Below, one piece after another: positions 8,922 to 34,831 of a stretch of DNA of 64,000 nt. The stretch is from NCBI GenBank assembly GCA_038058635.1, contig JBBUAP010000001.1:94157-158156 (forward strand), in the 5' to 3' direction. This DNA comes from Patescibacteria group bacterium. Its GTDB lineage: Bacteria > Patescibacteriota > UBA1384 > 2-12-FULL-50-11. The translations under genes were made by a program, and so were the position numbers. The notes under the pieces were generated by a model. It saw only the letters and a list, made by a program, of their open reading frames with translations, made no database searches and was not told where the DNA came from. Positions within the stretch are counted from its first letter, which is position 1. Every line of letters starts with the position of its first letter.

Positions 8922-8923
8922 TG

Positions 8924-18488: not shown

Positions 18489-18624
18489 TAAATCCCAATA
18501 ACCAAAATCCCAAAAGCCAAACAAACTACAATGACCAAAATACAAAACAGTTTCGAAAGTTTGAATATTGTAATTTTTAATTTGTTTGGGATTTGGTCTA
18601 TTGGGATTTGGGTTTTGTCTTAAA

Positions 18625-18903
18625 ATGTCTTTAGAATCCCTTTCTAGTTTTATCCGACAACCGAACAAAGAAAATAGTTTTCATAAGATTTATCGGGCCC
18701 ATTTATTGCAAGAAAAGATGGTTGAGCTACTGGGAGCGGGGGTGACAGTGACAATTAAGGGCACAAATGTCCGCCTCTGGTGTGCCAGCGAACAGTTGGC
18801 CGTCCTGGCTCGACTCAAAAAAACCCGCCTGCTGGCTCAATGTCACCAAACCCTCGGCCAAGCCGACATCAAACTGTCAATAAGAGTTAAGCCCACTCGC
18901 TAG
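18625..18903 (+). CDS. DUF721/DciA-like small protein (assignment rests on synteny and a weak motif)
   Basis: Small gene directly after recF, where DUF721 usually sits. RLWCASEQLAVLARL resembles the DUF721 SxAWAxEL region. ATG 18625 preferred over TTG 18586. Confidence 0.4.
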   Translation: MSLESLSSFIRQPNKENSFHKIYRAHLLQEKMVELLGAGVTVTIKGTNVRLWCASEQLAVLARLKKTRLLAQCHQTLGQADIKLSIRVKPTR

Positions 18904-18925: not shown

Positions 18926-19513
18926 CTAGAATACTTCGCCACTCTCTTCAATTGGAATAGTATCCGGAACTTTCTTGCTCCTTAACCAAGTCTTAATTGC
19001 GTCGAGAATGAAATCATGCTCTGCCTTGACGCTGGCTGGATCGTCCGGCGAAGAGAAGCGATAGTTTATCGTAGCGACTATTTTGACAATTTGTTTACCT
19101 TCAGCTGTATCGCCGACCTCGGCCCGTAAGCGATAATCACCATTTTGATACGGGAATAAAGAGAGATAAGGAACTTCCTGACTATTGTCGACGCTAGACT
19201 GGAGTCTTAAGCTGACGATCAAAATAGTTTTCTCCCCGTTCTTAAGATTAACTTCCTTAACAAGGCGTTCAGAATCTAAGCCCCAAACGGTAATATTTTG
19301 TTTTCCAGGACGAGTAATGATGGTAGAGGGTAACGGGTGAACGGTTTGATCTTTTTCTTTGCCCAGAGTTGCGACGACCTCTCTAGTAACCTCACTGGCT
19401 GGATCAAGCTTAATCTCTAGAGATGCTGTCCCTGAGGATGAATAAATAATAAAGCCAATTATTCCCAATAATATTACCACCGCTACGACTATAATGATTC
19501 GTCGCCTATTCAT
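18926..19513 (-). CDS. Hypothetical membrane-anchored protein; last gene of the T4SS-like block
   Basis: 195 aa with an N-terminal TM anchor (IIIVVAVVILLGIIGFIIY) and a soluble domain. No recognisable motifs. Confidence 0.5.
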   Translation of the reverse strand: MNRRRIIIVVAVVILLGIIGFIIYSSSGTASLEIKLDPASEVTREVVATLGKEKDQTVHPLPSTIITRPGKQNITVWGLDSERLVKEVNLKNGEKTILIVSLRLQSSVDNSQEVPYLSLFPYQNGDYRLRAEVGDTAEGKQIVKIVATINYRFSSPDDPASVKAEHDFILDAIKTWLRSKKVPDTIPIEESGEVF

Positions 19514-19517
19514 AGCT

Positions 19518-20234
19518 TCATTTTACAGTATTGACCGCCTCTGAAGCTGAACCGGTTTCGCAAGTTACTTGGTCTGGGACTAGAAGCTTAATAACATCGA
19601 GGCGCTTGTAGTACGGATTACCGTAGTTTGTATGCTTGTAGTTTCTATCCCAGCGTTGACCGCTCTCGTTGTACTGAATCGTCATTGCTTCGGCGTAGTG
19701 GTAAAACAATCGGGTGATAACATTTGCCCCCTTCGGAGTTGTGTAAGCTCCCTTGACGGCAATAGCGTTTTCTAGCGGACGCCAAACGTTAGCTAATTGG
19801 TATGGCCAGCCGCCGGCCTTGGCCGCCGCCGTTCTCCCGCTACTATAATGCTCGTACCCAAAAGCATCGTCTGGATTACCAAACTCTTGCTCACCCCACC
19901 ACACACCAATTATGACAGCTGGATTAAGGCCCCGTTTTTGCCCTTCGGTTAGAATATCTAAAATATTTGACTTGACTCTAGCAGCCCGAGGACCATACCT
20001 GGAGTTCTTGACTAGGGTAGCAATTACTTTTTCGGGATCGTCGGCAATCGAGGTGTCGGTAAAATACTTGTCTTCCAAATAGCAGCCAGTACCGTAACTG
20101 GGACCACTGGCGCCTGTTGGCTTATCGAGTTTTGGTAATTGGCCGAAGACGGCGTAGTAGACTATCGCAAACGAGAAGAAAATTAACGCTAGGATGGCAA
20201 TGATGATGGCGATAACCGCATTGCCATTACGCAT
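19518..20234 (-). CDS. Hypothetical membrane-anchored extracytoplasmic protein, possibly a cell-wall-active enzyme
   Basis: N-terminal TM anchor, then a soluble domain rich in Trp/Tyr/Gly (GVWWGEQEFGN). A function as a wall-active enzyme is inferred from context only. Confidence 0.45.
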   Translation of the reverse strand: MRNGNAVIAIIIAILALIFFSFAIVYYAVFGQLPKLDKPTGASGPSYGTGCYLEDKYFTDTSIADDPEKVIATLVKNSRYGPRAARVKSNILDILTEGQKRGLNPAVIIGVWWGEQEFGNPDDAFGYEHYSSGRTAAAKAGGWPYQLANVWRPLENAIAVKGAYTTPKGANVITRLFYHYAEAMTIQYNESGQRWDRNYKHTNYGNPYYKRLDVIKLLVPDQVTCETGSASEAVNTVK

Positions 20235-23200
20235 TAGAAGATTCCTCCAAAACCAACATGAACCCAATCGGTCGTTTTGGTGGACTTTTGGGAGAAACCG
20301 AGGCCGATTGTGTCGCTGTCAAGAGACCAGTCGCCGAAGGCGTCAACCATTCTGGGCTCGAAGAACTCGGCATTGGCCTGACGGTAGGTCAGCACCTGGA
20401 GCGGTTTGAAAGGCGATTCTCTCTGTTCGCCGTAAGCAAGCGTGGCATCGAGGAGTTTGCCGACATAGTAGCGCGACCAACCCATCCAGATTTTTTGGTT
20501 GTCGCCTTTGGTGAACGGTTGGGTGTCATCCCAATCGAACGGGTTTTGCCCGGGGCTGGGCGAACTCCGAATTTGGCTGATATCAGCCGGCAACTGATCG
20601 TATGGGACACCAAAATCAAACTGATCAGCGGCTGAGTCATATTCGCTGACACCGTAAAGCTCCTGCGGTGGCATTGGGCAGAGATACTCAACCTTATAGA
20701 CCCCAAACATGTAGATGGCGACGGCGATGTAGATACCGGTCGGGCCAAGCCCCAGGGCGTTGGCAATAAATCCTGTCACTAAAGCCTGCACGGTTCCGGG
20801 AGGGGCGGCGATCGCTTCGTCGGCCGAACCGAAAAACGCTTGACACTCCTTACAGGCACTTAACCCGAGCTCTATGGCAAACATAATCAATGCTGCCCGA
20901 GCGGCCGAAACATTGCTTCTAGCGTTAGTGACGGATAGCGCCCCTTCTTTACCAGCCTTGGCCGCAGTTAAAGCTTTCTGGGCGCCGGAGATGGTGGTGT
21001 AGAGTTTGTAGGCCTGATAAACCTTACCGGCCGGTAAGCCAAACTTTTTGTCACCCCACGAGCTTAAGCGGCTAATCAGAAAATCTTTACCTAAGTTGTC
21101 CAGCGACTCGACAAGAGTAATCTTTCCGGTCGCATCTTTCAGGTCTTTGGCAGTATTCCAGTTATTAACAGCCGCAAAGTAAAGCGATTTAGCTAGACCG
21201 CTCGGCAAACTACCGATATTGAGATTATCGTCTAACCAGTTGTCGAAGAAGCCCCACATCGCTCCGTATTTGTCGTTATTAGTAAAGAAGTCGCCCTGAC
21301 CCCGAGTCCGAGCGAATTGGTAGAAGCTACTGACAAAGGCGGTTGAGAATGATCCAAACGAGACACCCGACTGGCCAATGAGATTGAGAACAATTCGATC
21401 GGTTGTGGCTGGATCGATCTCACCTTCGTAGAGGGCTTTGAGCATGCCAGGCACATACAGCGGCGACAGTCGAACTAGCTCGGTATCGAGTTTGCCGAAA
21501 GCAAAATTCTGCAAGAGGGCACCGCGTTCGGCGGTCGTACCACTAAACATTGTTCGCGAAAACCCAACCGGAATAGACGAGTCGATCTTGCGCAGGAGCG
21601 AGTCGGACATGCGATACTCAATATTCTTCTGGGCCTCTTCCATTAGCTGTCCTCGGGCCTCTTTGTAGTCGGCAGCTGCCTGCTCTTCCGACTCACTGCT
21701 TATTACCCCAGCTTCGGCGTTATTCTCCGCTATCCTAGCGTAGATAACATCAGGGTTATCCATAATCAAGGCCCTCCTCATCTCGGCGTAAGTAAATTGG
21801 TCATTGGCCGGCATGAACTGGTTTATTTGCGGCAAAAGGGCAGCAAATGAAGTAGCGGCGATCGCTAGCCGCCAATCCCCAGTAATAAAGGCCTCGGCAT
21901 CGGTCCGAAACTCGATCGGGATACCGGTGGCCCGCAAGAAAAAGTCGCCAACACCATTCGAGACCCGGACATAGCTTTGCAGATTAGGGTCTGTTTCTAG
22001 CCGTTGTAGTTGGTATTTTTGTTCGGCAGTTAGTTTGTCTGGGCTAATAAGTTTTAACCGAGCGTACTCTTGGCGTTGGCGCTCTAACAGTTCCTGTTCC
22101 TCGGTCGTGCCAGTACGATTGTAGAGACCCTTAACTTGCTCGGCCAAGCGTTCAAAATCTTCAAAGTTATAGCCGTCCAAATTGACACCGATTGATTGTC
22201 CGACCATGCGCAGACCCTGATCGAGGAGCAAGTTAGCGCCGGTGCCAGTGCCGGGAGCAATAATATATTGCAGGAAAGAATCTTTACTAAAGTTGGCCTT
22301 GCCGTCAACCGACCGACCCATTAAGCGGTTGATTACCGCGACACCGGTTTCAATCTCCTCTAGTGTTTGATCGTCACCGCCCTTAATTACCTTAATCAAG
22401 GCATTAATTTCGGTGGAACTAAGCTTGAACTGGTCGCTAATGCCAAAATAGTCATAGATTTTATCGGCCGTAAAACCTTCGAGTGAACCTTGAGTGGCCT
22501 TGGTTGCTAGTTGTTTGGTACTAATTTTGTCCTGGAGATAAGAGGCAACGGTGCCAATTGGTGTCCCGAGGGCGATATCGAGCGACCGCCAACCAGTAGT
22601 ATTGGTCTCATCTGCCCAGAAAGTTTCATCACCCATCAACTCGGTTAATGTTTGGCTACTGTTGAGGTGGAAAATTCGATAACCCTGGCTCGGGTCGATC
22701 CCGTTGGCGCCGTAAAAGAGAGTTCGGGCCGAATCATTAGCCCGTAGTTTTTCTTGTGAAATGCCGAGTCGTTCGGCCAAAACGGCGTAGCCGTAGTTTT
22801 CTGGAATATTGCCTTTAAGCGAGACATTTTGATCTTTCAGTCCCAAGGTGGTACTGACATAGTTGGCGAAGATCTCCTGGGTGGCGTCGGCCAGCTTTTT
22901 ATCGCCGTTGATCACAGCAAAAGTACTGCCGGCGTTCCAACCGAAGGCCTTGTCCACCTGGACGCCGCCTAATTTCTCGGCCAGAATTAGGTTTTTGCCG
23001 TCAAATAAGCTCGATAAATCGGCGGGGATAATTTGGGAAGAGGGGTCCTTGATACTGTATTCCTTATTGATAAAAGCGGCGATCTCAGGGCCGTGTTTGT
23101 TAACGAAACTCTTGATATCAACCTTGCCCTTGCTCAGGTTATTGTCGTCAACGCCGATCTGGACGCCCATTGTCGAGGCGCCAACAGTATTAGTAACATC

Positions 23201-24775
23201 GCCAAGCTTAACTTCCTTTTTAGGGTTAAGGAGGTCGTCTAATATCGGCTTGGTTAAGCCGGAATACTTACCTTTCACAGCTTTCTTGGCAGCTTCCCGA
23301 ACCATCGCCAGCCCGAAAGTCTTTAAAGAATCTTGGGACTCCTTCTGCTTCTTGGGGTCGGCTGAGAACATATTCTTCAAATCTTCGGTGCCGATGGTGT
23401 TGCCGGTCGGGGCGCCGTCGAGCTTAACTTCGCTCGGAGTCTTCTTCTCGGTAACGGCTTTCTCAAGCAGGGCCTTTTGGTCGCTCGGCAACTTGAGGGC
23501 GTCGGAAAGAACATTCACCCCAGCCATCTTCAGACCCTTGGCGTCTTTCTTCTTCAAGGTATCAACGGTGCCGATCATTAAGTTCAAGCCATCGTCCGAG
23601 CGGCCGAATTTGTCTAAAACGGCTCTGATCGTCTCACTATTCATTGCGTCGTCGAGGGTGTGCTTGTCGAAGTAGCCGTTGGGAATGCCGAGCGATGTTT
23701 CCAGGTGTCGCTTGCCGGTCGCCTCTAAGATGTTGTCCCAGCCGTAGCCCCGCAAACTACCAGCGGGAAGATTCAATCCTTGCTCAACCCGACTCTTGGC
23801 GAAAGCGACTCGGGCGTCCTCATCGTAGTCGCCGGTGGCAATGCCCGTTGGCAAGCCCGGTAGCGATCGTTCCAGGACGGCGCCGCCGAGGGTGTGAAGT
23901 AGGCCGTCGGCCAACGGGTCGCTCAAGACTTGGTTGACGCCGAAGGTTTTTAAGTAAATATTAGCGCCGACATAGCTGACGATAGTTTTTAGGTCCATCC
24001 CTTTGACATACTCGATGTAATAATCCATCTCCCCCGATTGATTTAGGTAAGCGGCAATACTTTGAGCGCCCATTTCGCCGGAAGCGCCCAAAATACTCTG
24101 GGCAGTCGGGGTGGGATTACTCTTAACACCCTCGACGCTCTGCCAAGCGACTTTGACTGGCATGGGCTTTTGCCACCGAGTTGTGGAGCCGCCGATGTGG
24201 CGTTTCTCGACCAACTTACAGACAACTGAACCAACCTCCGAAATATCGAGAGCCTGGCCGCGGTTATGGCCGGAAACAATATCACCTTCGTCAGTAATCG
24301 CCTGGGTGCCCTCACGGTCGAACCTACCAGCGCCTTCAGAAGTGTAGTTTTTCAAAATCCGATTGACTTTAATATGATCAAAACCGTAGCCGCCTTGCTC
24401 AACCGGTAAGACTAGCTGTAGCAGGTAATCAGTCGTTCGAATATCGACCTTACCATCTTTGAGTTGATTTATATCGTCGGGAGAAATCTCCAAATTGCCT
24501 TCGATTTCATTGATAGCTTGCAGGTCGTAAGTACTCTGAACCTGGAATTGGCCTGGCTCAGCAGTTGGTTCATCGGGTGAAATCCAGTCAGAAGGGTAAT
24601 AATCCGTTTCTGGATAGGTTGCTACATCAACCTCTGTCAAATCTTCCTCTTGCTTATCTGTTTGGGCATAAGCACGGGGTAGAGGCCCCATGCTGAAACC
24701 GGCGGCCACCATCGGTTGGAGAATAATTATCATGGTAGAGAGAAGGATCTTTAGTCTAAATCCGGGGCTTCTCAT
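20234..24775 (-). CDS. Giant secreted/surface protein (1513 aa) within the T4SS-like block
   Basis: Uninterrupted 4.5-kb ORF with an N-terminal signal peptide (MIIILQPMVAAGFSMGPLPRAYAQ) and a hydrophobic segment near the C-terminus. Translationally coupled to its neighbours. Confidence 0.7.
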   Translation of the reverse strand: MRSPGFRLKILLSTMIIILQPMVAAGFSMGPLPRAYAQTDKQEEDLTEVDVATYPETDYYPSDWISPDEPTAEPGQFQVQSTYDLQAINEIEGNLEISPDDINQLKDGKVDIRTTDYLLQLVLPVEQGGYGFDHIKVNRILKNYTSEGAGRFDREGTQAITDEGDIVSGHNRGQALDISEVGSVVCKLVEKRHIGGSTTRWQKPMPVKVAWQSVEGVKSNPTPTAQSILGASGEMGAQSIAAYLNQSGEMDYYIEYVKGMDLKTIVSYVGANIYLKTFGVNQVLSDPLADGLLHTLGGAVLERSLPGLPTGIATGDYDEDARVAFAKSRVEQGLNLPAGSLRGYGWDNILEATGKRHLETSLGIPNGYFDKHTLDDAMNSETIRAVLDKFGRSDDGLNLMIGTVDTLKKKDAKGLKMAGVNVLSDALKLPSDQKALLEKAVTEKKTPSEVKLDGAPTGNTIGTEDLKNMFSADPKKQKESQDSLKTFGLAMVREAAKKAVKGKYSGLTKPILDDLLNPKKEVKLGDVTNTVGASTMGVQIGVDDNNLSKGKVDIKSFVNKHGPEIAAFINKEYSIKDPSSQIIPADLSSLFDGKNLILAEKLGGVQVDKAFGWNAGSTFAVINGDKKLADATQEIFANYVSTTLGLKDQNVSLKGNIPENYGYAVLAERLGISQEKLRANDSARTLFYGANGIDPSQGYRIFHLNSSQTLTELMGDETFWADETNTTGWRSLDIALGTPIGTVASYLQDKISTKQLATKATQGSLEGFTADKIYDYFGISDQFKLSSTEINALIKVIKGGDDQTLEEIETGVAVINRLMGRSVDGKANFSKDSFLQYIIAPGTGTGANLLLDQGLRMVGQSIGVNLDGYNFEDFERLAEQVKGLYNRTGTTEEQELLERQRQEYARLKLISPDKLTAEQKYQLQRLETDPNLQSYVRVSNGVGDFFLRATGIPIEFRTDAEAFITGDWRLAIAATSFAALLPQINQFMPANDQFTYAEMRRALIMDNPDVIYARIAENNAEAGVISSESEEQAAADYKEARGQLMEEAQKNIEYRMSDSLLRKIDSSIPVGFSRTMFSGTTAERGALLQNFAFGKLDTELVRLSPLYVPGMLKALYEGEIDPATTDRIVLNLIGQSGVSFGSFSTAFVSSFYQFARTRGQGDFFTNNDKYGAMWGFFDNWLDDNLNIGSLPSGLAKSLYFAAVNNWNTAKDLKDATGKITLVESLDNLGKDFLISRLSSWGDKKFGLPAGKVYQAYKLYTTISGAQKALTAAKAGKEGALSVTNARSNVSAARAALIMFAIELGLSACKECQAFFGSADEAIAAPPGTVQALVTGFIANALGLGPTGIYIAVAIYMFGVYKVEYLCPMPPQELYGVSEYDSAADQFDFGVPYDQLPADISQIRSSPSPGQNPFDWDDTQPFTKGDNQKIWMGWSRYYVGKLLDATLAYGEQRESPFKPLQVLTYRQANAEFFEPRMVDAFGDWSLDSDTIGLGFSQKSTKTTDWVHVGFGGIF

Positions 24776-26106
24776 AAGTCACTTCCATATCTTTTGGCAC
24801 CATTGAAGACAATACAACTACTTCGGCTTGCAGCCCCCCGCCTTCTTATTTGTGGCGGTGGAGTTCCGTCCTTCCCACCGGAGCTATTATCAATTGCTTC
24901 ATCTCCTCCGATGTAAAATCCGATATGATCAAATAGAACCGAACCTCCCTTAGAGCAGCTACCGTCCCCCCAGAATATAATATCACCAACCTGAAGCTTG
25001 CTCTTATTCTGGTTGTAGTAACCGGCACTTTTAATGTCCGGACGACTAACAACTATCTTATAAAATGGTCGTCTCCAAATGCCATCAACACCGGCTTCGA
25101 TTGGATTAGGTATGCCTGCGTTCTGCAAGACCGTTGAAACGAAAGAGGCGCAGGCAACTCGACCGCCGGCCTTAGTGATGGTACAAAAATTACCACTTGC
25201 CTGACCGACTTGATCTTTGGCCTCTTTGGCGATCCATTCTCCAAACGGTAAAGTTGAGTCCAGCGCTTGAATTTTACTTATCGCCTCCCCAAGCTGTTTC
25301 TTTTTCGCTTCTCCGGATAAGTTGATCCCCGATTCGATGGTTAATAGAATCTCCTTAACTTTTAACCTGACTTCCGCGACCCGTTCGGGTTTTGTTGCCC
25401 CAACATTTTTAAGCACAAAGTCATAACGCTCTTTCTCGGTCGCCAAAACTTTTTCGGTAACTTTCCGTCCCGAAAGGACGAAATCTCCTCCAATTGATGC
25501 CACCAGAGTTGTCTGATCGGTCTGCGCTTGAGTAGTCGGATACTGCGGGCTGCCCTTACCGCCGAGCAAGCCAAGAGGGATGGCGATGAGTAATAGTAGT
25601 CCGGCGATGATACACACAATCCAAGTCCAGAACTTTTTGTTAGTCAGCAACTTTTTAATATCTAATGCGATTAGAACTTCGCCTAAAATCGGAATTAGCC
25701 GGGCACCGAGCTTGCCACCGACCTTCAAACCGGCCCTTCCTACATCTTCGGCAAGTTCTTTCCCGACACCTTTGGCAACTGGCTGGCCGGCACCACTAAG
25801 AGGGGGAACTTTCTTGAGATTTTTAGCCCCTTCGATACCCGGCTCTATCATCCCGGCCTTATCGGCACTGCGGGCGCCGAGTTTTCCTTTGACCTTACCG
25901 TAAGTCCCTTTAGCGTTATCGAACTGACTTTTTAGGCCTCGCCTCCGACCGATGACATTTTGCTGCGGAGCTCCCTGTTGGTCATCTGGCAGCCCGGGTT
26001 CGGTCGGCGGTCCGTCGTAACCCAAATCGCTTAACAGGTCGCGATCGGGATCAAACCCGTCTGGTTGGACCTCTGGTAATTGCTCTGGATAAAGTACTTC
26101 TGGCAT
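24772..26106 (-). CDS. Membrane-anchored NlpC/P60- or CHAP-like cell-wall hydrolase, a functional analogue of VirB1/PrgK/TcpG
   Basis: C-terminal domain has a Cys...His papain-like arrangement (GNFCTITKAGGRVACASFVSTVLQNAG ... GDIIFWGD ... FDHIGFYIGG). A central TM segment and a Pro/Gly-rich N-region. Confidence 0.6.
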   Translation of the reverse strand: MPEVLYPEQLPEVQPDGFDPDRDLLSDLGYDGPPTEPGLPDDQQGAPQQNVIGRRRGLKSQFDNAKGTYGKVKGKLGARSADKAGMIEPGIEGAKNLKKVPPLSGAGQPVAKGVGKELAEDVGRAGLKVGGKLGARLIPILGEVLIALDIKKLLTNKKFWTWIVCIIAGLLLLIAIPLGLLGGKGSPQYPTTQAQTDQTTLVASIGGDFVLSGRKVTEKVLATEKERYDFVLKNVGATKPERVAEVRLKVKEILLTIESGINLSGEAKKKQLGEAISKIQALDSTLPFGEWIAKEAKDQVGQASGNFCTITKAGGRVACASFVSTVLQNAGIPNPIEAGVDGIWRRPFYKIVVSRPDIKSAGYYNQNKSKLQVGDIIFWGDGSCSKGGSVLFDHIGFYIGGDEAIDNSSGGKDGTPPPQIRRRGAASRSSCIVFNGAKRYGSDL

Positions 26107-26185
26107 TTATTTAGTAATTTTGTAACTTCGAGTGAAGTGAGAAGCGAGTGTTAGTGACATTCAGTAATTTCGTAATTTTTCTCCA

Positions 26186-28873
26186 CTACGCTTCTTGCCC
26201 GAACATACTTAAAATCTGCTCGGGATTGGTGGTGATGAACTGATCTTCTGTGTACGAGGCGATGATTTGGATTGCCGCCCGATCTACTCCAGCAACAAGT
26301 AATCCCTGACCAACATCGGCTGTTTGCAAGAACTGCTTTTCGCCGTCGGTCAGTTTGAAAACCGAAGCCAATTTATCAACCGCGGTTGGCGATTGACCGA
26401 GCAACAACTGGGTGGCGGAGTTGGAAACAATCGCCTTGCCGTAGGCGTTGTCGATAAAGTCCTCAACATCTTGACTGATGACGGTGACACCCAGGAAGTA
26501 CTTGCGAGCTCGCTTGGTCATCGCGTTTAAGAATTTGGCGGTGTCTTCAAAACGCATCATCCACCAGGCCTCGTCGATAATTAGTAATCGTTTTTTCAAT
26601 TGACCCTTGACCCGAGCCCAGATGTAATTCAAAACCAAATACATCGCTAGCGGTCGCAACTCGTCTTCCATATTGCGAATCGAAAAAACAGTAAACTTGT
26701 TGGTTAGGTCAATGTTGGTCGGTGAATCGAACAAGTTAGAGAATGAACCCTCACTGAATTTGACGAGCCGGTTAACCAACTGTTCCGCCCCAGTCATATT
26801 CGATAAGACGCTGACTAAATCGGCCAACAGCGGTGGCGGATTATTTTGAGTGGCTGGATCGATCGAGATGTCCTTCATAGCGTAGGTTTCATAGAGGGCT
26901 TTGTCGAGCAAGGCGTCTTCCTCGGCGTTCAAACCTGCAGCCATCAAACTAATCAAACCATGTAAACCAGCAATGGTGGTGCGCAAAACATCTTCACCGG
27001 CTTCAGCCGAATCAGCTGAGACATATTTCGGTAGGTCGAACGGGTTAATCTTCTGGGCGGAGTTGAGCGAGATGTCGATGTAGGTGCCACCGATAGTTTG
27101 CGACAGAGTTTCGTACTCCCGTTCTGGGTCGACGACGATTACTTCAGCACCGAGCATCAGCGTTCGCAAGGCCTCAAGCTTAACGGCGTAAGATTTACCG
27201 GAGCCGGATTTAGCAAAGACAACCTGGTTGGCATTCTCCATTTGGAAGCGATCGAACAGCACCAGCGAGCTGTTGTGCAAATTGATGCCGTACAAAACGC
27301 CGTCGTGATGCGACAAATCCTGGCTGGAGAAGGGGAAGGTGGTCGAGAGCGAGTCGGTGTCAAGGTTGCGGACAATCTGGAGCTCGTCGTAGGCCAAAGG
27401 CATCGTCGTCGAGAAACCCTCCTCCATTTGCAACAAGGCCGGCTTGGAGTAAACCAGCATCCCGCCGAGCGTCGTCTCGATTTGTTTGGTGAGCGTTTGC
27501 AAATCTTCCGGAGTCTTAGCGTAGATAGTGAAGTAAAGCGAGTACTGAAAGAGACGAGTCTCACCTTTCTGGAGGGTGTCCCGCAGCTCTTCAACATCGC
27601 CGATGGCTGTTTCTAGCTCGGGGTTACGAACCAAGCCCTTCTCTTGCTCAATTTGCAAGCTTGATTGCAACTGGGTTGTCTTGCGGCGCAACTGGTTCAT
27701 CACCAACGCCGATTCGAGCGGGTAGATAAACATCGAAACATCGATGGTGGCGTCAAAGTTGTAAATTGGGCTCAACCAGCCGGAGTACAGATAGCGCGGA
27801 TAGGTAAAGACGAACATCGTCCGGGCGTAGAACGAGCCGATCTGTAGATAACTTGGGCTAATCGCCATACCGGCCGGCGCGATAATATCAAGGACATCGG
27901 CCAGGCCTTTTTTGAAGATATCCATCTCGGTGTCGGCCGCTGATTTAGCATCTTTGGGATTGATCGAAGCCATAATTTCACTCAAGGATTTTTTCTTGGT
28001 CGTCACCGGCGCGATATCAGCACTTAGTGGCGCGCCTGGAGGTGGGGTTTCCTTAGTCGGGGGTAAAACTGACGGCATCTCTTTGGTTGGCGCCAGCTCG
28101 CCAGCTTGAGCGGCTTTAATGACATCGGTGACGACATTAGTGACCTGGTCGTCGTTCGGGCCTTTTTTGATGACCGAGCCGGTCAGCTGTTCGATATCCT
28201 CGATGTGCTGGGTTGTCGATTCCTCGGGGTTGTAGGTGTTGTAATAGAGCTCGATCAGCTCGGCCGAGCCGAGTTTTTTGGCCTGAATGCCGAGCGATTC
28301 TAGCCGGCCGGTGACGATCTGGGTTTTTTCTTCCAGCTGAGCCCTCAGCGCTTCGAACTCTTGGACGGTGTAAACGGTCTCCTTGTTTTTCTTGCCGCCG
28401 AGCAATTTGTCCATCCAGGTTTGTTTAGTGGTCGAAACGCCGGGATTTTTGTTGTGGGGGACGATGACGAAGTACGACCGATCCATAATATTGACCTCGG
28501 CCGAGAGGCGTTGGATAAAGTCGATGTAATCGGAAATCTGAACCTTAATCAGTTCGTTGGTTTCGTCAACGCCGATGGCCTGGAGCTTGGCGATGTAGCG
28601 ACTCAAATCAACCCTGCGACCCTGAATAACAATCTGGAAAGGAAATTTGAGGGCGTTCAAGAAACTACGATACTGATAGATAACGGCGTCTTGCTCTTTT
28701 TGGCTTCGCAGCTCGATTGAAACCGGCTTAACTTTAACGACTTGTCTGATTGAGCCGTCGTTCAAGACGACAACATCGTCGCGTATCTCCGAAATCGCCA
28801 CATACTGTTGGGTCGACGAAGGATTCGATTTACTGCCACCAGGTTTTTTTCGCGCTACTTTTTTGTCAAACAT
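26186..28873 (-). CDS. virB4: VirB4/TrbE/CagE-family type IV secretion ATPase
   Basis: Walker A FAKSGSGKSY, Walker B LLIIDEAWWMM, a VirB4-like N-terminal domain and a size of 895 aa. Confidence 0.9.
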   Translation of the reverse strand: MFDKKVARKKPGGSKSNPSSTQQYVAISEIRDDVVVLNDGSIRQVVKVKPVSIELRSQKEQDAVIYQYRSFLNALKFPFQIVIQGRRVDLSRYIAKLQAIGVDETNELIKVQISDYIDFIQRLSAEVNIMDRSYFVIVPHNKNPGVSTTKQTWMDKLLGGKKNKETVYTVQEFEALRAQLEEKTQIVTGRLESLGIQAKKLGSAELIELYYNTYNPEESTTQHIEDIEQLTGSVIKKGPNDDQVTNVVTDVIKAAQAGELAPTKEMPSVLPPTKETPPPGAPLSADIAPVTTKKKSLSEIMASINPKDAKSAADTEMDIFKKGLADVLDIIAPAGMAISPSYLQIGSFYARTMFVFTYPRYLYSGWLSPIYNFDATIDVSMFIYPLESALVMNQLRRKTTQLQSSLQIEQEKGLVRNPELETAIGDVEELRDTLQKGETRLFQYSLYFTIYAKTPEDLQTLTKQIETTLGGMLVYSKPALLQMEEGFSTTMPLAYDELQIVRNLDTDSLSTTFPFSSQDLSHHDGVLYGINLHNSSLVLFDRFQMENANQVVFAKSGSGKSYAVKLEALRTLMLGAEVIVVDPEREYETLSQTIGGTYIDISLNSAQKINPFDLPKYVSADSAEAGEDVLRTTIAGLHGLISLMAAGLNAEEDALLDKALYETYAMKDISIDPATQNNPPPLLADLVSVLSNMTGAEQLVNRLVKFSEGSFSNLFDSPTNIDLTNKFTVFSIRNMEDELRPLAMYLVLNYIWARVKGQLKKRLLIIDEAWWMMRFEDTAKFLNAMTKRARKYFLGVTVISQDVEDFIDNAYGKAIVSNSATQLLLGQSPTAVDKLASVFKLTDGEKQFLQTADVGQGLLVAGVDRAAIQIIASYTEDQFITTNPEQILSMFGQEA

Positions 28874-29303
28874 CTTTATTCTTGAATCCTGAATCTTGAA
28901 GCTCTTCCCCCTGTTGATTATCTAATATCCCCACAATATCCCGTACCCGAGCTTTATCGAAATCTTTGTGCGGTGCCTCAACTTTTTCCTCCTCCTTGAC
29001 GACGATGTGGGTCGAGCGCTGGTAGCCGCCCTTCTGCCAGACACGGGTTCGGGGATGTTGTAGATAGCGCACCAAGGAACCGAGGAAATAAATAAACGGC
29101 CGATCTTGAACCTTAATAAAAGCCAAGGCAAACGAGAGTAAGCCGACGGGAATAGCGATCAGCCAATACAACGGCCGCAGAAAACTTCCAGCGGTCCAGT
29201 CATTAAGCAAATAGATAAACAGCCCACCAAAAAGTAGATAGAAAAACTGCACCAAGGTCAAAGGTCCAATGACCTTGTCTTGCATGTCGATGTTCTGTGG
29301 CAC
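28866..29303 (-). CDS. VirB3/PrgI-like small two-TM membrane protein
   Basis: 145 aa with two hydrophobic helices. Sits immediately upstream of virB4 and overlaps it by 8 nt; assignment is by context. Confidence 0.45.
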   Translation of the reverse strand: MPQNIDMQDKVIGPLTLVQFFYLLFGGLFIYLLNDWTAGSFLRPLYWLIAIPVGLLSFALAFIKVQDRPFIYFLGSLVRYLQHPRTRVWQKGGYQRSTHIVVKEEEKVEAPHKDFDKARVRDIVGILDNQQGEELQDSGFKNKDV

Positions 29304-29432
29304 TTTAACTTCCAGTCTTTCTCCCTCCCTAAAAACAGTTTAGCAAAGTAATCTTGCGGAATATACTCGTCGGGACGCCTCGTTAGCTCGTAGCTAAGTC
29401 AGCTACTTGCTATAGATTCATGATTCAAGAAT

Positions 29433-30374
29433 CTAGAACAGTCGGAAAATGCTCCAAAAATCGTATTTACCCGCTTCTTTGGCTGGTAGTTCTTGCTTAT
29501 TAACATCAGGGAGCGTCGTAGGTGCCGGCATTGTTTCCGCCAGAGACATTGATTCGAAGATTTCGTCGCCTTCAGAATCTTCATTACTGCTAAAGAGGTG
29601 ATCCATCAGTTCGTGGTTGTTCAACATTGATCTCAAATTCTGATAGATATGAAAATGATCAATCATTTCTGGGTGGTGATCGAAATAGGCTAATTGTTCA
29701 TCACCATCCCAATCGTCGAATTGCCCAGCTTCATTCATCGTGGCTGCCGACTCCTCGTTATCAAGCCAGTACTGACTCTTACCGTCGACATTGGTGGCCA
29801 GCTTGGTTTCTAAAAACCCTTTAAAGCTACCGTCGGAGTTGAAATACTGCGCCATTAGCTCAGCCATCGCTTCGCTTCGAATCATCTCATCGACACCAGT
29901 CTGGTCTGCTTTCTTGCCGAGTTCGATGGTGGTTCTGTAGACATGAAGAGATATCTGATCGGCTGGCATGCCAGTAATAAGTTCTTGGATTTCGCTGTAT
30001 TCTTCGGTGCCTAGCCTTTTAAGGAAGTCGTCTAGACGGTGTCCCAATTCGTGAGCGTAAGCATTTTGCTGCTTGACTTCGGTAAGCTTAAAAAACTCGT
30101 TTTGGTTGAAATTAACATTGCCAAGTTGATCGATATGGGCGAAGATTCTTTTCAGACCGCCGTACGCCCTTTTAAGCTTCTCGTTTTCTAAAAAGTCTTT
30201 GTCATCTAAGTCAGCTACTCCAACGCTCGGCAGTAGCATTCGCAGACGTTCTTGATTGATTGGCAGCCGCTTTTCGGCGCAACGCTTAAGTAAAGCCTCT
30301 TCAAGTAGACGGATTTTATGTTTCTGTTCGGCCCGTTCGCGATCGATCGCCAGAGCTTCGGCCTCGGTTTCCAT
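29433..30374 (-). CDS. HExxH-motif zincin-like protein (possibly ImmA/IrrE-like or another metallopeptidase)
   Basis: YAHELGHRL carries a canonical HExxH. Acidic and otherwise unremarkable; embedded between the VirB6-like gene and VirB3/VirB4. Confidence 0.45.
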   Translation of the reverse strand: METEAEALAIDRERAEQKHKIRLLEEALLKRCAEKRLPINQERLRMLLPSVGVADLDDKDFLENEKLKRAYGGLKRIFAHIDQLGNVNFNQNEFFKLTEVKQQNAYAHELGHRLDDFLKRLGTEEYSEIQELITGMPADQISLHVYRTTIELGKKADQTGVDEMIRSEAMAELMAQYFNSDGSFKGFLETKLATNVDGKSQYWLDNEESAATMNEAGQFDDWDGDEQLAYFDHHPEMIDHFHIYQNLRSMLNNHELMDHLFSSNEDSEGDEIFESMSLAETMPAPTTLPDVNKQELPAKEAGKYDFWSIFRLF

Positions 30375-30379
30375 AGTTA

Positions 30380-33300
30380 TTACTTACCGGGTTCTTCGGG
30401 AGTTTGGTGAGGGGGCTCTACCGGAGAGTCCGCGGATTGAGCGGCAGCATCAGTCGAAGAATTTTGTTCCACTTTAATATTGATTTCGCGCGATGGAATG
30501 GTGGTGCTTGAAGGCGTTGGGGTAGCTGTCGGAACGCTTGCCCTTGCTTGACTCATCGCCGCCGCGATTGAGCCGGTGCTAATCTGATGCATTCCCAATT
30601 CCTTAGAAATGGTATTTCCTAGGCTAGAGACTTCTCTTTGCAGCACCGATTTCACCGAGTTTTTACCGCGTCCAGCGACAGCTTGAGCTAAAGTATCTGT
30701 TATAGATCTAGTCAGTGCTTGCATGGCGGCGGGATCTGTCTTGCCGGAAAGTGTGGAGAGCTTTGATACAATCGGCCCAACTAAGTTGTCAGAAAGGTGA
30801 TTGACTAGTTCGGCTTGACTTTTACCCAGTCTGTCCCAATCCCCATCGCTCATACCTGCGACGGATTGAGTTGCTTCGTGGCTAACTCCTTGCGCGCCGA
30901 CAGAATAGTTGTGAGCGGACTCGAGAGTTGAATGGAGCTGTTGTTGCTTAGTTCCGTCTCCGATGTTTCCAGAATGAATATTTAAATCGTGTGCCGCCGA
31001 AACATTCTCAACTGCTTGGCGAACAACTTCGTTACTAAGCTGATCGCCCTGTTTTTTCATATTATCTACTAGTCTCTGACCATCTCGATCTAACGATCTA
31101 CCAAGCATTTCAAATGACTGATTACGCAATTCGCCAAGCTGGCCCTGAACCCTTTGAGCTTCTGGTGAACCGGCAGTAGTACTGATTGATTGAGCCATCA
31201 GATCTCGCCACTGATCAGTCAGCTGGCGCATGGAATCTTTTACCTCCCCAGCAACACCTGGAACAATATTTCTGGCTTGGTCAATAGCATGCTGACTTCG
31301 AATTGGGTCGTAATGGATCATCGGATCACCAGACGGTGGATTGTCAGTGGAGTCTCCGCTTGAGTAGTATGATCCAAGTGGCTTGATCCACTTCTGTATT
31401 GTTTCATCAGGATACTTATCGTCGGTTGAAACGTTTTTTCGTCTTGATTCTCTAACAATATATTCATAAAATGCTGACAGTTGTCCCTCGGCAAATAATC
31501 CTTTACCCAAAAGGTCTCTTGGATTTACACCAGCATCAATTAATTGTTGTTGAACCTTTCTCATATCTTCTTCTTTTTTTGAACTGGCTAGGGCTCGACG
31601 AAGCTTCATCGCTTCTCCATGAGACAAAGTATGGAGAACTCTTTCAACTGCCTTGATAGTATCCTTTGATGCCGCCGCTGCTTCGAGCGCCTCTTCCGGA
31701 GAAGATACTTCTTCCATAAATATCTTTCTTGCGATATCTCGTTTTGAAGAATATCCACCGACTCGCCCAGATACGATATCTGAAATATTGCCCTTGACTG
31801 GCCCCGCTCCAATGTTTATTTTACTAGCCTCAAGACTACTAGCTTTTTCTGCGCCGGCCGTTCTCGCTTCCCACCACTTACTGACCGTTTTCTCGGGATT
31901 AGCCATCGTGTATGCCCTACCTCTCATGGCTCCAGATAAGTTTTGAACGTTTTTATATCTTTTTTCCGATTTCTCGACCCGTTCCCTAGCTGCCTTCAGT
32001 CTGTCGGCGCGAGCTATGTCGAAAGGGGTTCCTTTAGCACGAGCTCTATCCTCTAACTTTTTGATTCTTTCTTGTTTCTGCTTTAACCCTAATACTTTAT
32101 TTGCAGCTAAACCTTGTCCGACACCCCAGGCACTAGATGGAGCATTTTTCGCCGTCCCAAATGCCTTCTTAGACATCGCCTCCATGTCGTACATCCCCTT
32201 GCTGATTGCACCCGGAACTTTAAGGATTGCAGTTGCCGCTGCAAAAGTAAGTAACACCTTTATTAGGTCTTGTTCGTTACCCCCAGTAGCAATTGAGCCG
32301 AAATCCACCGGTAAACCGAGCAATTTATTACCGTATGTAATAAAGAAGGCAATAGCTAGGAATAGGATTGGCAAGACAAAAGCTTGACGCAAGAATTGAT
32401 CCCACCATTTACCGAACCACTGTGACATACTCGGAATGCCGTAACTAGCAAATGCCAGAGGAGCAACTACTATTAAAGCGTAAAGCCAGACGATTCTTTT
32501 AATTAAGGCATAGGCAAGCATACCAGACAAGAGGATGAAGTATAACACCGCAATTATGACGATGAATAAAATAAATGGTGTCGTGACTAGGGATACATAG
32601 TTAATGGAAGTTGCACCTCCCCCTATGACATCAATGAATGCTTTAATTAAATCTCCCTGTGTATCTACCCTTGTATCTACGCTTGCGCTTGTTACTTGGA
32701 GCGATAGATTGGTTAACGCCTGAACCACATCAAGAATGAATCTAATAATAAGCATACTGGCATTAGCGCCAATGACACCAATGACTATTCCCGGTAGCGC
32801 CTTTTTGGCGGCGTAAACATTAAGATTTAGATGGAGTACGTTCGCAAAGGCAATCGCCAGTAGCGCCAAGATTACTAAAATATTCAACAGAGAAAGACTA
32901 TACTTCCAAGCTATTACCAAACCATCACCCGGGTCTTTGATCCGTTCTTCAATTGGTTTTTTGGTCCCAGTTAGTTTTTGAGCTTGATTTCTAAAGGGTC
33001 CAATAACACTATTTATTAACCCCCCCACCGCACAGGCAACAACCGAGGTAAGTATATTGTCTAAACCATTTTTAGCGATCTGAACAAGACTACAGTCACC
33101 GCCGCCATCTTCTGAACGCGCAAAGTTAATTTTTACACCCCAATAGTCTAGCCAGCCACCCTCGCCAACCTTTGTTCCACAGTTGGAATGAAGATTAGAA
33201 GCGGTCTTGTTAGCATTGGTAGTGACAGTATCGGGATGTTTGTCATATATCTCTTTGGTAGTCGCCCCCTCTATACCCGTTCCTGGGCGGCCTGTTTTGT

Positions 33301-34576
33301 AGACTCCTCCAGGGTCATCGCAGTTATCAGAGCGGCTCGCTTTAGGAACATTCATAATGTACCCAAACACTTTATTGATATCGTCATCGGGAATTGATAA
33401 ACCACCACTACCCTGTATCAACGCGCCACCATTCTCAATGCTTTGATTGCTAAATATGCCTATAAAGACATTGGCTTGATCGGTATCGTAGATGATGTTT
33501 AGACAATGCCCCGAAGATTGTATACCAGTTATCTGGTCGCAGCTTTCGACGAGATAGTAGAAGTTATCGATTTTCTCGAAAGGACCGCTTGTGCCCGTGC
33601 GACCGTAGGCCTGGAAGATCAACCATTTTTGATCAAGAGTACCTCTAGCACCGTTGAATGAAACGCCTACTAGTCTAAATTGAAGCTGGGGGCGACCCAC
33701 AGAAGGATCGGCCGGAATGAAGTTTCCCCCTCCATTAGCATCAGGTGTAGGTGCAATGTACGGTGGGTTGGGTGTGTTCTGATCTGCAGGCACAAGAATT
33801 CTCAACGCCCCTTTGCCATCTGCCATTAAAGCTCTGATCCAACTCTGAATTTTCGAAACGCTTGCATCTTCGCTGGCACCAGGAACAAGCTGATAATTAT
33901 CGACTAGAGCGTCAGTAGGATCCGCAGTGTAACTGGCTACGGCAGTGATTGGGGTGCGAGAATCCCCGGACACTCCTGTTCCGTTACACTCACCATTATC
34001 TCTCGCTGAAGTGACGCGGTGAGTACCAGTTGCACCAATAAGGAAGCAGGGGGACTTCTCTGAAGTAATAGCGTCCGTTGGTAGCCTGCTGTAATCAAGA
34101 CGCGCAACGAGCTCGTTGGAGCGGTTGTAAAATTCAACCAATGTTGGAGAAATAATCTTTGAGTTTGTCTGGCCGTAGCTTGCTTCAATATTCAAGCTAC
34201 TCATTGATACCGAGCTAATTCTCCAAGTGTCAAAAATCTTATTGCCGAAACCCGTGACCGATCCAATTTTAGAATAGGTTTGACCGACAGTAATGTAAGC
34301 AAAGGTTTCATTCGAAGCAGCAGTTGATCCTGCCTCGGAAACTTTAATTCTCGCGGTGACAGCTAGTTCAGTTTCTGATTTACGAAAAAAAGTGGGTTTA
34401 GTACTATTTTTGATTTCAAAGATAGCTTTTCCGGCAGCCTGGGCGATGGGAGGCTTGAATGGAGAGAGGGAGCTTGTGAGCCATCCAGAAAAAAGGCTGC
34501 TGGCCAATACGGCAACCAGGGCTGTTGTAACTAACACCCTCCCGAATCTCATACATTTATAGTAGAGATTCCCCAC
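30380..34576 (-). CDS. VirB6/TrbL-like multi-TM protein with large N-terminal extracellular and C-terminal cytoplasmic extensions (1398 aa)
   Basis: N-terminal signal/TM anchor, a ~560-aa ectodomain, at least six TM helices in the middle (LLNILVILALLAIAF ... VLLTFAAATAILKVP), then a long coiled/low-complexity tail. Confidence 0.6.
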   Translation of the reverse strand: MGNLYYKCMRFGRVLVTTALVAVLASSLFSGWLTSSLSPFKPPIAQAAGKAIFEIKNSTKPTFFRKSETELAVTARIKVSEAGSTAASNETFAYITVGQTYSKIGSVTGFGNKIFDTWRISSVSMSSLNIEASYGQTNSKIISPTLVEFYNRSNELVARLDYSRLPTDAITSEKSPCFLIGATGTHRVTSARDNGECNGTGVSGDSRTPITAVASYTADPTDALVDNYQLVPGASEDASVSKIQSWIRALMADGKGALRILVPADQNTPNPPYIAPTPDANGGGNFIPADPSVGRPQLQFRLVGVSFNGARGTLDQKWLIFQAYGRTGTSGPFEKIDNFYYLVESCDQITGIQSSGHCLNIIYDTDQANVFIGIFSNQSIENGGALIQGSGGLSIPDDDINKVFGYIMNVPKASRSDNCDDPGGVYKTGRPGTGIEGATTKEIYDKHPDTVTTNANKTASNLHSNCGTKVGEGGWLDYWGVKINFARSEDGGGDCSLVQIAKNGLDNILTSVVACAVGGLINSVIGPFRNQAQKLTGTKKPIEERIKDPGDGLVIAWKYSLSLLNILVILALLAIAFANVLHLNLNVYAAKKALPGIVIGVIGANASMLIIRFILDVVQALTNLSLQVTSASVDTRVDTQGDLIKAFIDVIGGGATSINYVSLVTTPFILFIVIIAVLYFILLSGMLAYALIKRIVWLYALIVVAPLAFASYGIPSMSQWFGKWWDQFLRQAFVLPILFLAIAFFITYGNKLLGLPVDFGSIATGGNEQDLIKVLLTFAAATAILKVPGAISKGMYDMEAMSKKAFGTAKNAPSSAWGVGQGLAANKVLGLKQKQERIKKLEDRARAKGTPFDIARADRLKAARERVEKSEKRYKNVQNLSGAMRGRAYTMANPEKTVSKWWEARTAGAEKASSLEASKINIGAGPVKGNISDIVSGRVGGYSSKRDIARKIFMEEVSSPEEALEAAAASKDTIKAVERVLHTLSHGEAMKLRRALASSKKEEDMRKVQQQLIDAGVNPRDLLGKGLFAEGQLSAFYEYIVRESRRKNVSTDDKYPDETIQKWIKPLGSYYSSGDSTDNPPSGDPMIHYDPIRSQHAIDQARNIVPGVAGEVKDSMRQLTDQWRDLMAQSISTTAGSPEAQRVQGQLGELRNQSFEMLGRSLDRDGQRLVDNMKKQGDQLSNEVVRQAVENVSAAHDLNIHSGNIGDGTKQQQLHSTLESAHNYSVGAQGVSHEATQSVAGMSDGDWDRLGKSQAELVNHLSDNLVGPIVSKLSTLSGKTDPAAMQALTRSITDTLAQAVAGRGKNSVKSVLQREVSSLGNTISKELGMHQISTGSIAAAMSQARASVPTATPTPSSTTIPSREINIKVEQNSSTDAAAQSADSPVEPPHQTPEEPGK

Positions 34577-34631
34577 CTACGGCGCAACAAACCCAACACA
34601 TATTAAGAAAAAATCATCTAAGGCTTCTAGG

Positions 34632-34714
34632 CGACTGATGACAACATTGTCATCAGTCGCAAACCCAACCCAAGTGAATATTATGGACAGATTATGGGTT
34701 TAAACCCATAATCT
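34632..34714. promoter_or_regulatory. Two perfect palindromes in the divergent intergenic region between the VirB6-like gene and a lipoprotein gene
   Basis: cgactgatgacaa-ca-ttgtcatcagtcg at 34632-34659 (13-bp arms). agattatgggttt|aaacccataatct at 34689-34714 (13-bp arms, no spacer). Confidence 0.4.
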
Positions 34715-34831
34715 ACCTGCGTCGATAGGCTGCTAAAGCGTGGCGAAGAAAGGGTTTCTAGCCATATTTCCATCGACAGAGAGAGCGATTTTCGGTAAAA
34801 TTGGGACAATCTGTTTCGAGGAGATTCGGAC

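Follow-up and report, generated by a model that had tools for sequence, protein, structure and literature searches.

Among the closest described counterparts of the locus considered here is a type IV secretion system (T4SS), that of Candidatus Southlakia epibionticum (hereafter S. epibionticum) ML1, a member of the Saccharibacteria, whose gene cluster (SEML1_0006-0019), along with the flanking essential genes 0004-0005, is essential for epibiotic growth as judged by transposon sequencing (Wang 2023, PMC10633639). The cluster includes an essential pilin array and no recognizable coupling or relaxase proteins, and the region is ordered as dnaA, dnaN, recF, two small proteins that are exported, a wall hydrolase with several domains, a 1114-amino acid Hedgehog/DD-peptidase protein, VirB4, a TrsD-like protein, PrgI, a pair of extended VirB6-like proteins on either side of an NTF2-like one, six pilins, Hsp20, comFC, and tRNA-Ser (PMC10633639). 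A survey of 3,035 candidate phyla radiation (CPR; Patescibacteria) genomes found a monophyletic VirB4 clade, nested in the mating-pair formation class MPF-FATA, in 2,417 genomes (~80%); its components are PrgI/VirB3, VirB6, TrsD, and arrays of VirB2, it often lies near dnaA/dnaN, and relaxases numbered only 109 in the entire set (Quinonero-Coronel 2025, PMC12102498). A review of December 2025 treats the Patescibacterial system as a distinct T4SS type, possibly a pilus-bearing conduit, and counts it among the most intriguing of the superfamily's recent additions: no other T4SS is known to be essential for the cell that carries it, and no other monoderm one has VirB2-like pilins (PMC12857230). 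Here we describe a minus-strand gene block at positions 18926-34576 of a 64,000-nucleotide stretch of DNA (hereafter the window) from the metagenome-assembled genome of a Berkelbacteria-like Patescibacteria group bacterium (assembly GCA_038058635.1, contig JBBUAP010000001.1, positions 94,157 to 158,156). In our estimation, with a probability of roughly 85%, the block is the Berkelbacteria-lineage copy of the origin-adjacent, relaxase-less Patescibacterial T4SS, derived from MPF-FATA, and serves contact-dependent interaction with a host bacterium, by means of a pilus, the transfer of substrates, or both, and not conjugation. The system as such, including its missing relaxase and coupling protein and its proximity to dnaA, is already published (PMC10633639, PMC12102498, PMC12857230).

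The block comprises eight tightly packed genes, with spacings of -34 to +129 nt in our scan of open reading frames (ORFs):

30380-34576, minus strand: extended VirB6-like channel protein, 1398 amino acids (transmembrane [TM] prediction, family profile)
29433-30374, minus strand: acidic soluble HExxH protein, 313 amino acids (invariant motif; slot between VirB6 and PrgI)
28866-29303, minus strand: PrgI-family two-TM protein, the VirB3 analogue, 145 amino acids (PF12666)
26186-28873, minus strand: unsplit VirB4 ATPase, 895 amino acids (PF19044, NCBIfam conju_CD1110)
24772-26106, minus strand: bitopic NlpC/P60-CHAP-like wall hydrolase, p444, 444 amino acids (near-threshold Pfam matches, motifs)
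20234-24775, minus strand: exported giant protein, 1513 amino acids (signal/anchor, AlphaFold model, family profile)
19518-20267, minus strand: bitopic p249 in the SLT/VirB1 slot, 249 amino acids (position, anchor, ectodomain family)
18926-19513, minus strand: bitopic p195, 195 amino acids (one N-terminal TM segment)

The original prediction for this DNA, made from the letters alone, had counted nine genes; the scan gives eight and reproduces every one of its gene coordinates exactly. The one other minus-strand ORF in the vicinity, at 34681-34983, lies beyond the end of the block and looks non-coding. The earlier description of TM segments and signal sequences agrees with the predictions made here. 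Its VirB4 and VirB3-like assignments stand, the conju_CD1110 and PrgI scores both passing their cutoffs, as does its HExxH protein, in which the motif is present and is invariant in seven homologues; its NlpC/P60-CHAP-like hydrolase is borderline in the window, with the motifs in place and a homologue above threshold.

The VirB4 protein matches PF19044 (8e-26), as well as TraC_F_IV and AAA_10, in Pfam and scores 363 bits, against a cutoff of 325, with the NCBIfam equivalog conju_CD1110, the family of the MPF-FATA element CTn2. Both its Walker A (AKSGSGKS) and its Walker B (LLIIDE) motifs are intact. Residues 19-140 match NCBIfam TrsD (1.7e-6), and the protein is, judging from these matches, an unsplit VirB4 that carries a TrsD-like N-domain and the ATPase domain on one chain. 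We compared the block with 80 diverse CPR loci and with four close strains (L083-L086), whose VirB4 is 84-98% identical to that of the window. Single-ORF VirB4 proteins of 866-910 amino acids were also found in a clade of relatives, whereas in every other surveyed CPR locus showing both halves the protein is split into a TrsD-like ORF of ~230 amino acids and an ATPase ORF of ~610 amino acids. The two halves are often overlapping ORFs, and split and unsplit forms stand at a similar distance from the window protein (57-63% identity). In similarity searches the window VirB4 matched proteins of Berkelbacteria/Patescibacteria metagenome-assembled genomes at 56-98% identity, including matches at 90-98%, with relatives in more than 594 CPR genomes; the best matches, close and distant, all came from CPR genomes, and CD1110 was the best named family. 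The PrgI protein, whose gene overlaps the start of virB4 by 8 nt, has two hydrophobic segments and matches PF12666 (5e-7; 30.6 bits against a gathering score of 27) and, at 1.2e-3, TcpE. It adjoins VirB4 in 75 of the 80 CPR loci. In L084, where VirB4 is 96% identical, small ORFs at the expected PrgI position (8702-10008) carry precomputed matches to 23S_rRNA_IVP and bAvd, four-helix-bundle families tied to diversity-generating retroelements; no reverse transcriptase was seen in that 22-kb locus.

The VirB6-like protein consists of an N-terminal signal/TM segment, a Cys-containing ectodomain of ~475 residues, a polytopic TM core (~506-880), and a charged C-terminal domain of ~520 residues that is probably cytoplasmic. 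A match to VirB6/TrbL had been set beforehand as a test of its assignment as a channel protein. On its own the window sequence gave no direct family match, but the assignment held at the level of the family: a profile of the TM core (~540-880) built with 34 CPR homologues had TrwI, the VirB6 of R388, as its sole match in the whole of the PDB (E 5e-4), and 16 of 35 members of the core family match Pfam TrbL/VirB6 (PF04610), the best at 2.5e-7. This core, found in 38 of the 80 CPR loci, is the only part of the protein that is conserved across the CPR, and its position is always upstream of PrgI-VirB4.

The block is bordered on one side by yidC, dnaA, dnaN, and recF, the last three directly adjacent as had been predicted, and by a small conserved gene that follows recF; 438 nt separate the end of recF from the block. 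At its opposite end the block is followed by a variable island, then p118 (a small gene, 35737-36093), a class-I aminoacyl-tRNA synthetase (aaRS) gene, and tsaD. The G+C content of the block (0.45-0.52) equals that of its flanks. Gene order between recF and the aaRS gene is identical in the four close strains, and dnaA, dnaN, or yidC lies within 10 kb of virB4 in 30 of the 80 CPR loci. Synteny had been proposed earlier as a check, and the position beside the origin is indeed kept in the four strains, in these 30 loci, and in S. epibionticum. As had also been claimed, no VirD4-type coupling protein (type IV coupling protein, T4CP), relaxase, or VirB11, and likewise no integrase, was found in Pfam scans of ~50 ORFs across the 64-kb window. 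The sole FtsK-family protein of the window (59851-61890) carries the chromosomal gamma domain. Between the block and the tRNA genes of the region (12757-13039) stand yidC, dnaA, dnaN, and recF. The small gene after recF (18586-18903, plus strand), which has no direct Pfam match, probably starts at Met14, giving ~92 amino acids, and is 88-90% identical in close strains; its position is taken in L082 by a DciA (PF05258) gene.

Across the origin from the block lies an array of pilin genes:

7541-7921, 8221-8577, 8574-8921, and 8924-9271, minus strand: four divergent VirB2-like pilin genes (PF18895, T4SS_pilin)

Their PF18895 E-values are 1.9e-10, 8.8e-10, 5.3e-9, and 4.5e-4, with pairwise local identities of 25-48%. 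The array probably belongs to the same machine as the block, because the pilin array of S. epibionticum adjoins its VirB6 genes and has the same Hsp20-comFC-tRNA-Ser neighbours; an Hsp20 gene and a ComFC-like gene (11374-12099) are present in the window. Convergent with the last pilin gene, and 8 nt from it, is a gene (6105-7532, plus strand) for a PilB-type T2SSE ATPase with an MshEN domain, near which genes for type IV pili, such as PilC or PilM, were not found. We considered this ATPase as a candidate VirB11 and did not adopt that reading, its 475 residues and MshEN N-domain being typical of PilB/GspE. The comFC gene, the PilB ATPase, and the VirB2-like pilins (7541-9271) had all been noted in the original prediction and were recovered in our annotation. 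Between the pilin array and Hsp20 lies a gene for a solute-binding protein (9283-10662, minus strand; SBP_bac_8 / SBP_bac_1). A 285-residue ORF at 5051-5908 (plus strand), without a PDB match, overlaps a predicted tRNA-Ser (5816-5901, minus strand) and may be spurious.

Three proteins of the block have features of enzymes that act on the cell wall. The p444 protein has an acidic or disordered cytoplasmic N-terminus, one TM segment (163-181), and an extracytoplasmic catalytic domain at ~317-410. It matches NlpC/P60 with 22.5 bits (1.2e-4; gathering score 23) and CHAP at 1.5e-3, also just under the gathering score, and carries the motifs CASFVS and HIGFYIG, with Cys and His of the catalytic type. 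Its homologue in L002 clears the NlpC/P60 gathering score (24.7), and in the PDB p444 matches the cell-wall hydrolase 7cfl (E 0.0097). Among relatives the hydrolase that follows VirB4 is built on a constant scaffold, in which the N-terminus is acidic and a basic, Ala-rich stretch and a single TM segment are present, but with differing catalytic modules: an NlpC/P60-like one in the window, L086, and L002, Peptidase_M23 in L013 and L017, and a LAS/M15-like one in L083-L085, despite a VirB4 that is 93-98% identical to that of the window.

The second of these proteins, p249, has an N-terminal TM anchor and an ectodomain with the motif G(I/L)NPAV..W.GEQ.F, which is possibly lysozyme-like. Its positional orthologues in the four close strains carry an SLT domain (PF01464), an ectodomain that p249 does not share; the anchor is 58-66% identical in three of them (residues 12-52) and 43% identical over residues 12-39 in the fourth. 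In L003, L013, L016, and L017 ectodomains of the p249 type recur immediately behind VirB4, joined to Amidase_2, Amidase_3, or Peptidase_M15_4. When p249 was aligned with SLT by hhalign, its candidate catalytic Glu fell into register, at a probability of just 1-42%. Identification of p249 as an SLT enzyme by orthology was weakened accordingly, as the orthologues have only the membrane anchor in common with it. The protein looks more like a hydrolase than a VirB8. Counting p249 (in the SLT slot), p444, and a LAS-like domain of the giant protein, the block would hold up to three proteins of the wall-hydrolase type. The last gene, that for p195, has no homologue in 86 loci and its product no Pfam or NCBIfam match; it is specific to this strain and only an uncertain member of the machine. 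At the corresponding position S. epibionticum has two small exported essential proteins, one PEGA/Ig-like and the other prealbumin-like (PMC10633639). We considered a resemblance of p195 to the first of these (SEML1_0005) and set it aside when no Pfam signal appeared even at an E-value of 10.

The giant protein consists of a signal/anchor (residues 4-28), a disordered linker, an alpha/beta domain (~95-210), a helical body that extends from residue 228 to at least residue 1200, and a C-terminal part in which a hydrophobic segment (1336-1354) is joined by a C-terminal domain that is conserved. The N-terminal region is conserved as well and delimits a family with 188 representative clusters, nearly all of 1,400-3,300 amino acids, in which none of 33 members had a Pfam match. 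An AlphaFold model of residues 1-1200, made from a 33-sequence alignment, has a pLDDT of 81 and a pTM of 0.75, with the all-helical body at a pLDDT of ~90; it has no relative among solved structures. The small alpha/beta domain contains the motif SxHxxGxAxD, which is present in 71 of 105 domain segments of the family; its S, H, G, and D do not vary among 28 diverse members, and at least 90% of these keep the A. A deep profile of this domain gave nothing significant against the PDB, though 14 of the 15 weak matches were VanY-type carboxypeptidases or Sonic hedgehog, and residues ~95-210 are a probable LAS/Hedgehog-DD-peptidase-like domain. The large protein of S. epibionticum is annotated with the same fold group. 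The distal zinc-ligand His of such enzymes (HxH or ExxH) is not conserved, the strand in question reading V-A-W-Q with an invariant Gln and no conserved His downstream, and the domain may therefore be degenerate or use another ligand. Viral tape-measure proteins head the list of non-significant viral matches of the giant, at scores that are at noise level, and we rejected a relationship to phage tape-measure proteins as unsupported. The giant gene always directly follows the hydrolase gene, also in distant relatives. Two distant giants, in L081 (36-9154; 2503 amino acids) and L082 (3414-9089; 1891 amino acids), keep the context: in L081 a gene for an M23 peptidase overlaps the start of the giant gene, and in L082 the giant gene stands beside recF-dnaN-dnaA-rnpA-yidD-yidC, with a YkuD L,D-transpeptidase gene upstream.

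The 313-residue protein encoded between VirB6 and PrgI contains the motif HELGHRLD (HELGH from residue 108), of which H108, E109, and H112 do not vary across seven homologues (17-71% identity), all in the VirB6-PrgI slot and all from the Berkelbacteria-like clade. Its C-terminal tail, AGK(Y/F)DFW..FR, is also conserved. Neither a TM segment nor a signal peptide is predicted, no family match was obtained in Pfam or the PDB, and a database search returned only two homologues. Matches below threshold coincide with the motif (Peptidase_M41, E 0.076; stromelysin, E 0.47), and in an AlphaFold2 model of low confidence (pLDDT 38) the motif falls within a predicted helix (100-120). The protein is a putative zincin. 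In distant CPR classes (L004-L080) the same slot is filled by an unrelated-looking family of 34 soluble proteins of ~170-590 amino acids, often in tandem pairs and mostly without HExxH.

Comparison with the close relatives revealed that conservation changes abruptly along the block. Between the window and the closest strain VirB4 is 98% identical and the aaRS 92%; VirB4 is more conserved than housekeeping proteins. In L001 nucleotide similarity of 77-85% covers the aaRS gene, PrgI-VirB4, and ~109 nt at the start of the VirB6 gene, and is lost across 29316-34433. The VirB6 ectodomain shares 85% identity with that of L083, the closest strain, whereas the figure is 41% for the TM core, 25% for the C-terminal domain, and 27% for the HExxH protein; one breakpoint falls within the VirB6 gene, at about residue 505. 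It is in the most distant strain, L086, that the HExxH protein is most similar (69%); the identity of the giant, in contrast, follows strain relatedness (89, 76, 72, and 55%). On these alignments, a PrgI-VirB4 engine is flanked by sharply bounded variable cassettes, and because the patterns of identity are discordant with strain relatedness they point to cassette exchange, not merely to fast divergence.

A bolder extension of this idea, which we offer as speculation and think unlikely to hold in full, is that the engine sits between two exchangeable specificity cassettes that recombine among close strains. The upstream cassette would comprise the TM core and C-terminal domain of VirB6 and the HExxH protein, which co-vary and are maybe complexed; the downstream cassette would supply hydrolase modules (NlpC/P60, M15, M23, SLT, amidase) on fixed anchors, and the giant would be an unrecognized component that forms or guides a conduit. 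The HExxH protein may then be a substrate-processing protease or a translocated effector with a conserved C-terminal tail. If the extension is correct, strains would turn over their cassettes as an adaptation to hosts that differ in their cell walls, and the giant would be part of an envelope-spanning conduit of a kind not known from monoderm T4SSs.

The analysis itself shows what the components are, how the operon is built, that synteny at the origin is deep, and that genes for conjugation are lacking in the 64 kb. From the components and their arrangement we infer an architecture, a substrate and direction of transport, and roles for the giant and HExxH proteins in conditional terms only. 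A hexamer of VirB4 would be docked by PrgI/VirB3 onto the extended VirB6 channel in the cytoplasmic membrane; p249, p444, and the LAS-like domain of the giant would open the peptidoglycan locally; and the four VirB2-like pilins, encoded across oriC, would polymerize into a pilus or conduit. The helical giant and the VirB6 ectodomain would be the exposed, host-facing parts, and contact with a host bacterium would proceed through formation of the pilus, the transfer of protein or other substrates, or both. The original prediction of a resident, reduced, non-conjugative machine for host interaction, and not an integrative and conjugative element (ICE), is borne out by the position kept in the four strains, in 30 of the 80 loci, and in S. 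epibionticum, and by a G+C content equal to that of the flanks. Its view that the machine is a core with a single hydrolase has to be revised, as three proteins of the wall-hydrolase type and, probably, four VirB2-like pilins are now also assigned to it.

Several observations weigh against our interpretation. The support for VirB6 is transitive, by way of the family profile, as the window protein by itself matches no family; the NlpC/P60 score of p444 is slightly below the Pfam threshold; and the LAS-like domain lacks both the distal His and a significant match. A VirB8-like component was not recognized, neither p195 nor p249 having a sequence match to one in Pfam or NCBIfam. The pilin genes are 10 kb away, with origin-proximal genes between them and the block, and their co-function is deduced from synteny in another class. 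T4CP homologues are common elsewhere in CPR genomes (PMC12102498), and their absence here applies to the 64-kb window only, within a contig of ~495 kb. Finally, essentiality for epibiotic growth is known from one Saccharibacterium only (PMC10633639).

We have weighed three other explanations against this interpretation. Among named families VirB4 comes nearest to ATPases of conjugative CD1110/CTn2-type elements and of ICEs, the system descends phylogenetically from machinery for conjugation (PMC12102498), and toxin-antitoxin genes occur in the variable island of two related strains, all of which would suit a degraded or integrated conjugative element whose relaxase, T4CP, or integrase has been lost or lies outside the window. 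Such an element is nevertheless extremely improbable, given a position between recF and the aaRS gene that is the same in all four close strains and lies near dnaA in the 30 CPR loci and in Saccharibacteria, the lack within 64 kb of a relaxase, a T4CP, an integrase, and any boundary resembling att, a base composition like that of the flanks, a VirB4 better conserved between strains than the aaRS (98% versus 92%), and the rarity of relaxases in CPR genomes (109 in 3,035; PMC12102498). The block might alternatively be a machine for DNA uptake in the manner of H. pylori ComB or archaeal Ced, importing DNA or nucleotides from the host. CPR bacteria are without nucleotide synthesis (PMC10633639), comF, recG, and radA co-localize with the T4SS in the ABY1 class (PMC12102498), comFC is nearby here, and VirB4 has weak, partial matches to the DNA-import ATPases CedB (1e-11) and CedD (4e-6). 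These matches are, however, far under the cutoffs and cover the P-loop region only, and competence in S. epibionticum requires ComEC and type IV pili: a comEC deletion is non-transformable yet viable, whereas the T4SS is essential (PMC12857230). The essentiality of the T4SS thus does not stem from ComEC-linked DNA uptake, and we judge an uptake machine to be decidedly unlikely; among the roles proposed earlier, host interaction holds up and DNA uptake is, for the same reason, the least supported.

A machine for pilus assembly and adhesion alone, in which VirB4, VirB3, and VirB6 extract and polymerize pilins and no substrate is translocated, is a live rival, and we consider it unlikely rather than implausible. 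It would account for the lack of a coupling protein for substrates in the window and for the array of four divergent VirB2-like pilins, whose counterpart is essential in S. epibionticum (PMC10633639), and VirB4 with VirB6 is a platform for pilus biogenesis in Gram-negative systems (PMC12857230). Yet Ptl and Brucella VirB secrete proteins without a T4CP (PMC12102498, PMC12857230), for adhesion CPR bacteria possess type IV pili already (PMC12857230), and further functions in the cytoplasm are suggested by the conserved HExxH protein there and by the large cytoplasmic domain of VirB6. We retain a T4SS for contact with a host bacterium, with pilus formation and substrate transfer both admitted, as the preferred interpretation.

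The remaining feature of the locus is the region upstream of the VirB6 gene:

34577-35736, no strand assigned: variable island with a divergent lipoprotein gene and the presumed operon promoter (lipobox, promoter and terminator matches)

The lipoprotein gene (p280, 34832-35674, plus strand; lipobox LTLCGC) is divergent from the operon, and iterative searches of an early set of the loci gave no homologue of its product. The best -35/-10 matches of the island lie at 34684-34801 on the plus strand, and a strong terminator-like hairpin (35711-35690) is located 3' of the upstream aaRS-p118 unit. The island between that unit and the VirB6 gene varies among relatives: L084 and L085 hold toxin-antitoxin genes of the PIN, PhdYeFM/ParE, and HicB types, and L001 has at the same position three small ORFs, maybe pilins.

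The block represents no new kind of system but a clean example from the Berkelbacteria lineage. The leads that it offers are the unsplit VirB4, the 188-cluster family of giants, the HExxH protein of the VirB6-PrgI slot, and the cassette boundaries, sharp and phylogenetically discordant, on either side of a highly conserved ATPase engine. Should host range prove to be tracked by the variable modules, these would provide a handle on how epibionts recognize and breach the envelopes of their hosts.

How, then, does the block compare with known systems? By published tables, and not by sequences, its order is nearly one to one with that of SEML1_0004-0019. The differences are that VirB4 is a single ORF of 895 residues here and is divided into a TrsD-like protein (0009) and 0008 in S. 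epibionticum; that there is one VirB6-like gene here and there are two there; that the NTF2-like protein (0012) has no recognized counterpart here, the HExxH protein sitting beside VirB6 instead; that the hydrolase is NlpC/P60-like here and has two lysozyme domains and a Cys-protease domain there; and that the LAS-like domain is N-terminal in our giant and C-terminal in theirs. Moreover, the pilin-Hsp20-comFC-tRNA block lies across dnaA from the operon, unlike its arrangement in S. epibionticum, and a solute-binding protein gene intervenes between pilins and Hsp20, which abut directly in that species. With the CPR systems of the survey the block has in common an MPF-FATA-derived VirB4, PrgI/VirB3, a VirB6 near virB4, VirB2 arrays, proximity to dnaA/dnaN, and, within the 64-kb window, the lack of a relaxase and of a nearby T4CP. 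In the survey TrsD is a separate protein and the most abundant component, whereas here it is fused to VirB4, and the survey makes no mention of the giant family, the HExxH slot protein, or the exchange of hydrolase and VirB6 modules at the level of strains (PMC12102498).

Like the MPF-FATA systems (CTn2 CD1110, pCF10 PrgH/I/J/K, pGO1 TrsC/D/E/G, and pCW3 Tcp), the block has a CD1110-type VirB4, a PrgI/TcpE-type VirB3, a polytopic VirB6, and a bitopic multi-domain hydrolase, and no outer-membrane core. Unlike the conjugative systems of that class, it lacks, within the window, a T4CP, a relaxase, an origin of transfer (oriT), and a PrgB-type LPXTG adhesin, and it has VirB2-like pilins, a location at the chromosomal origin, and vertical inheritance. 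It resembles R388 (TrwI/VirB6, PDB 7o3v) in the TM core of VirB6, as judged by profile, and in its VirB2-type pilins, and the extended VirB6 proteins of the Rickettsiales in the large hydrophilic extensions of VirB6 (PMC12857230). It differs from the Gram-negative VirB/Trw systems in having, within the window, no VirB7/9/10 core complex, VirB5, VirB11, or VirD4 and no recognized VirB8, and in belonging to a monoderm envelope. Bordetella Ptl and Brucella VirB likewise work without VirD4 (PMC12102498, PMC12857230), but both, unlike the block, are diderm, comprise the full VirB1-11 set, and have protein substrates that are known.

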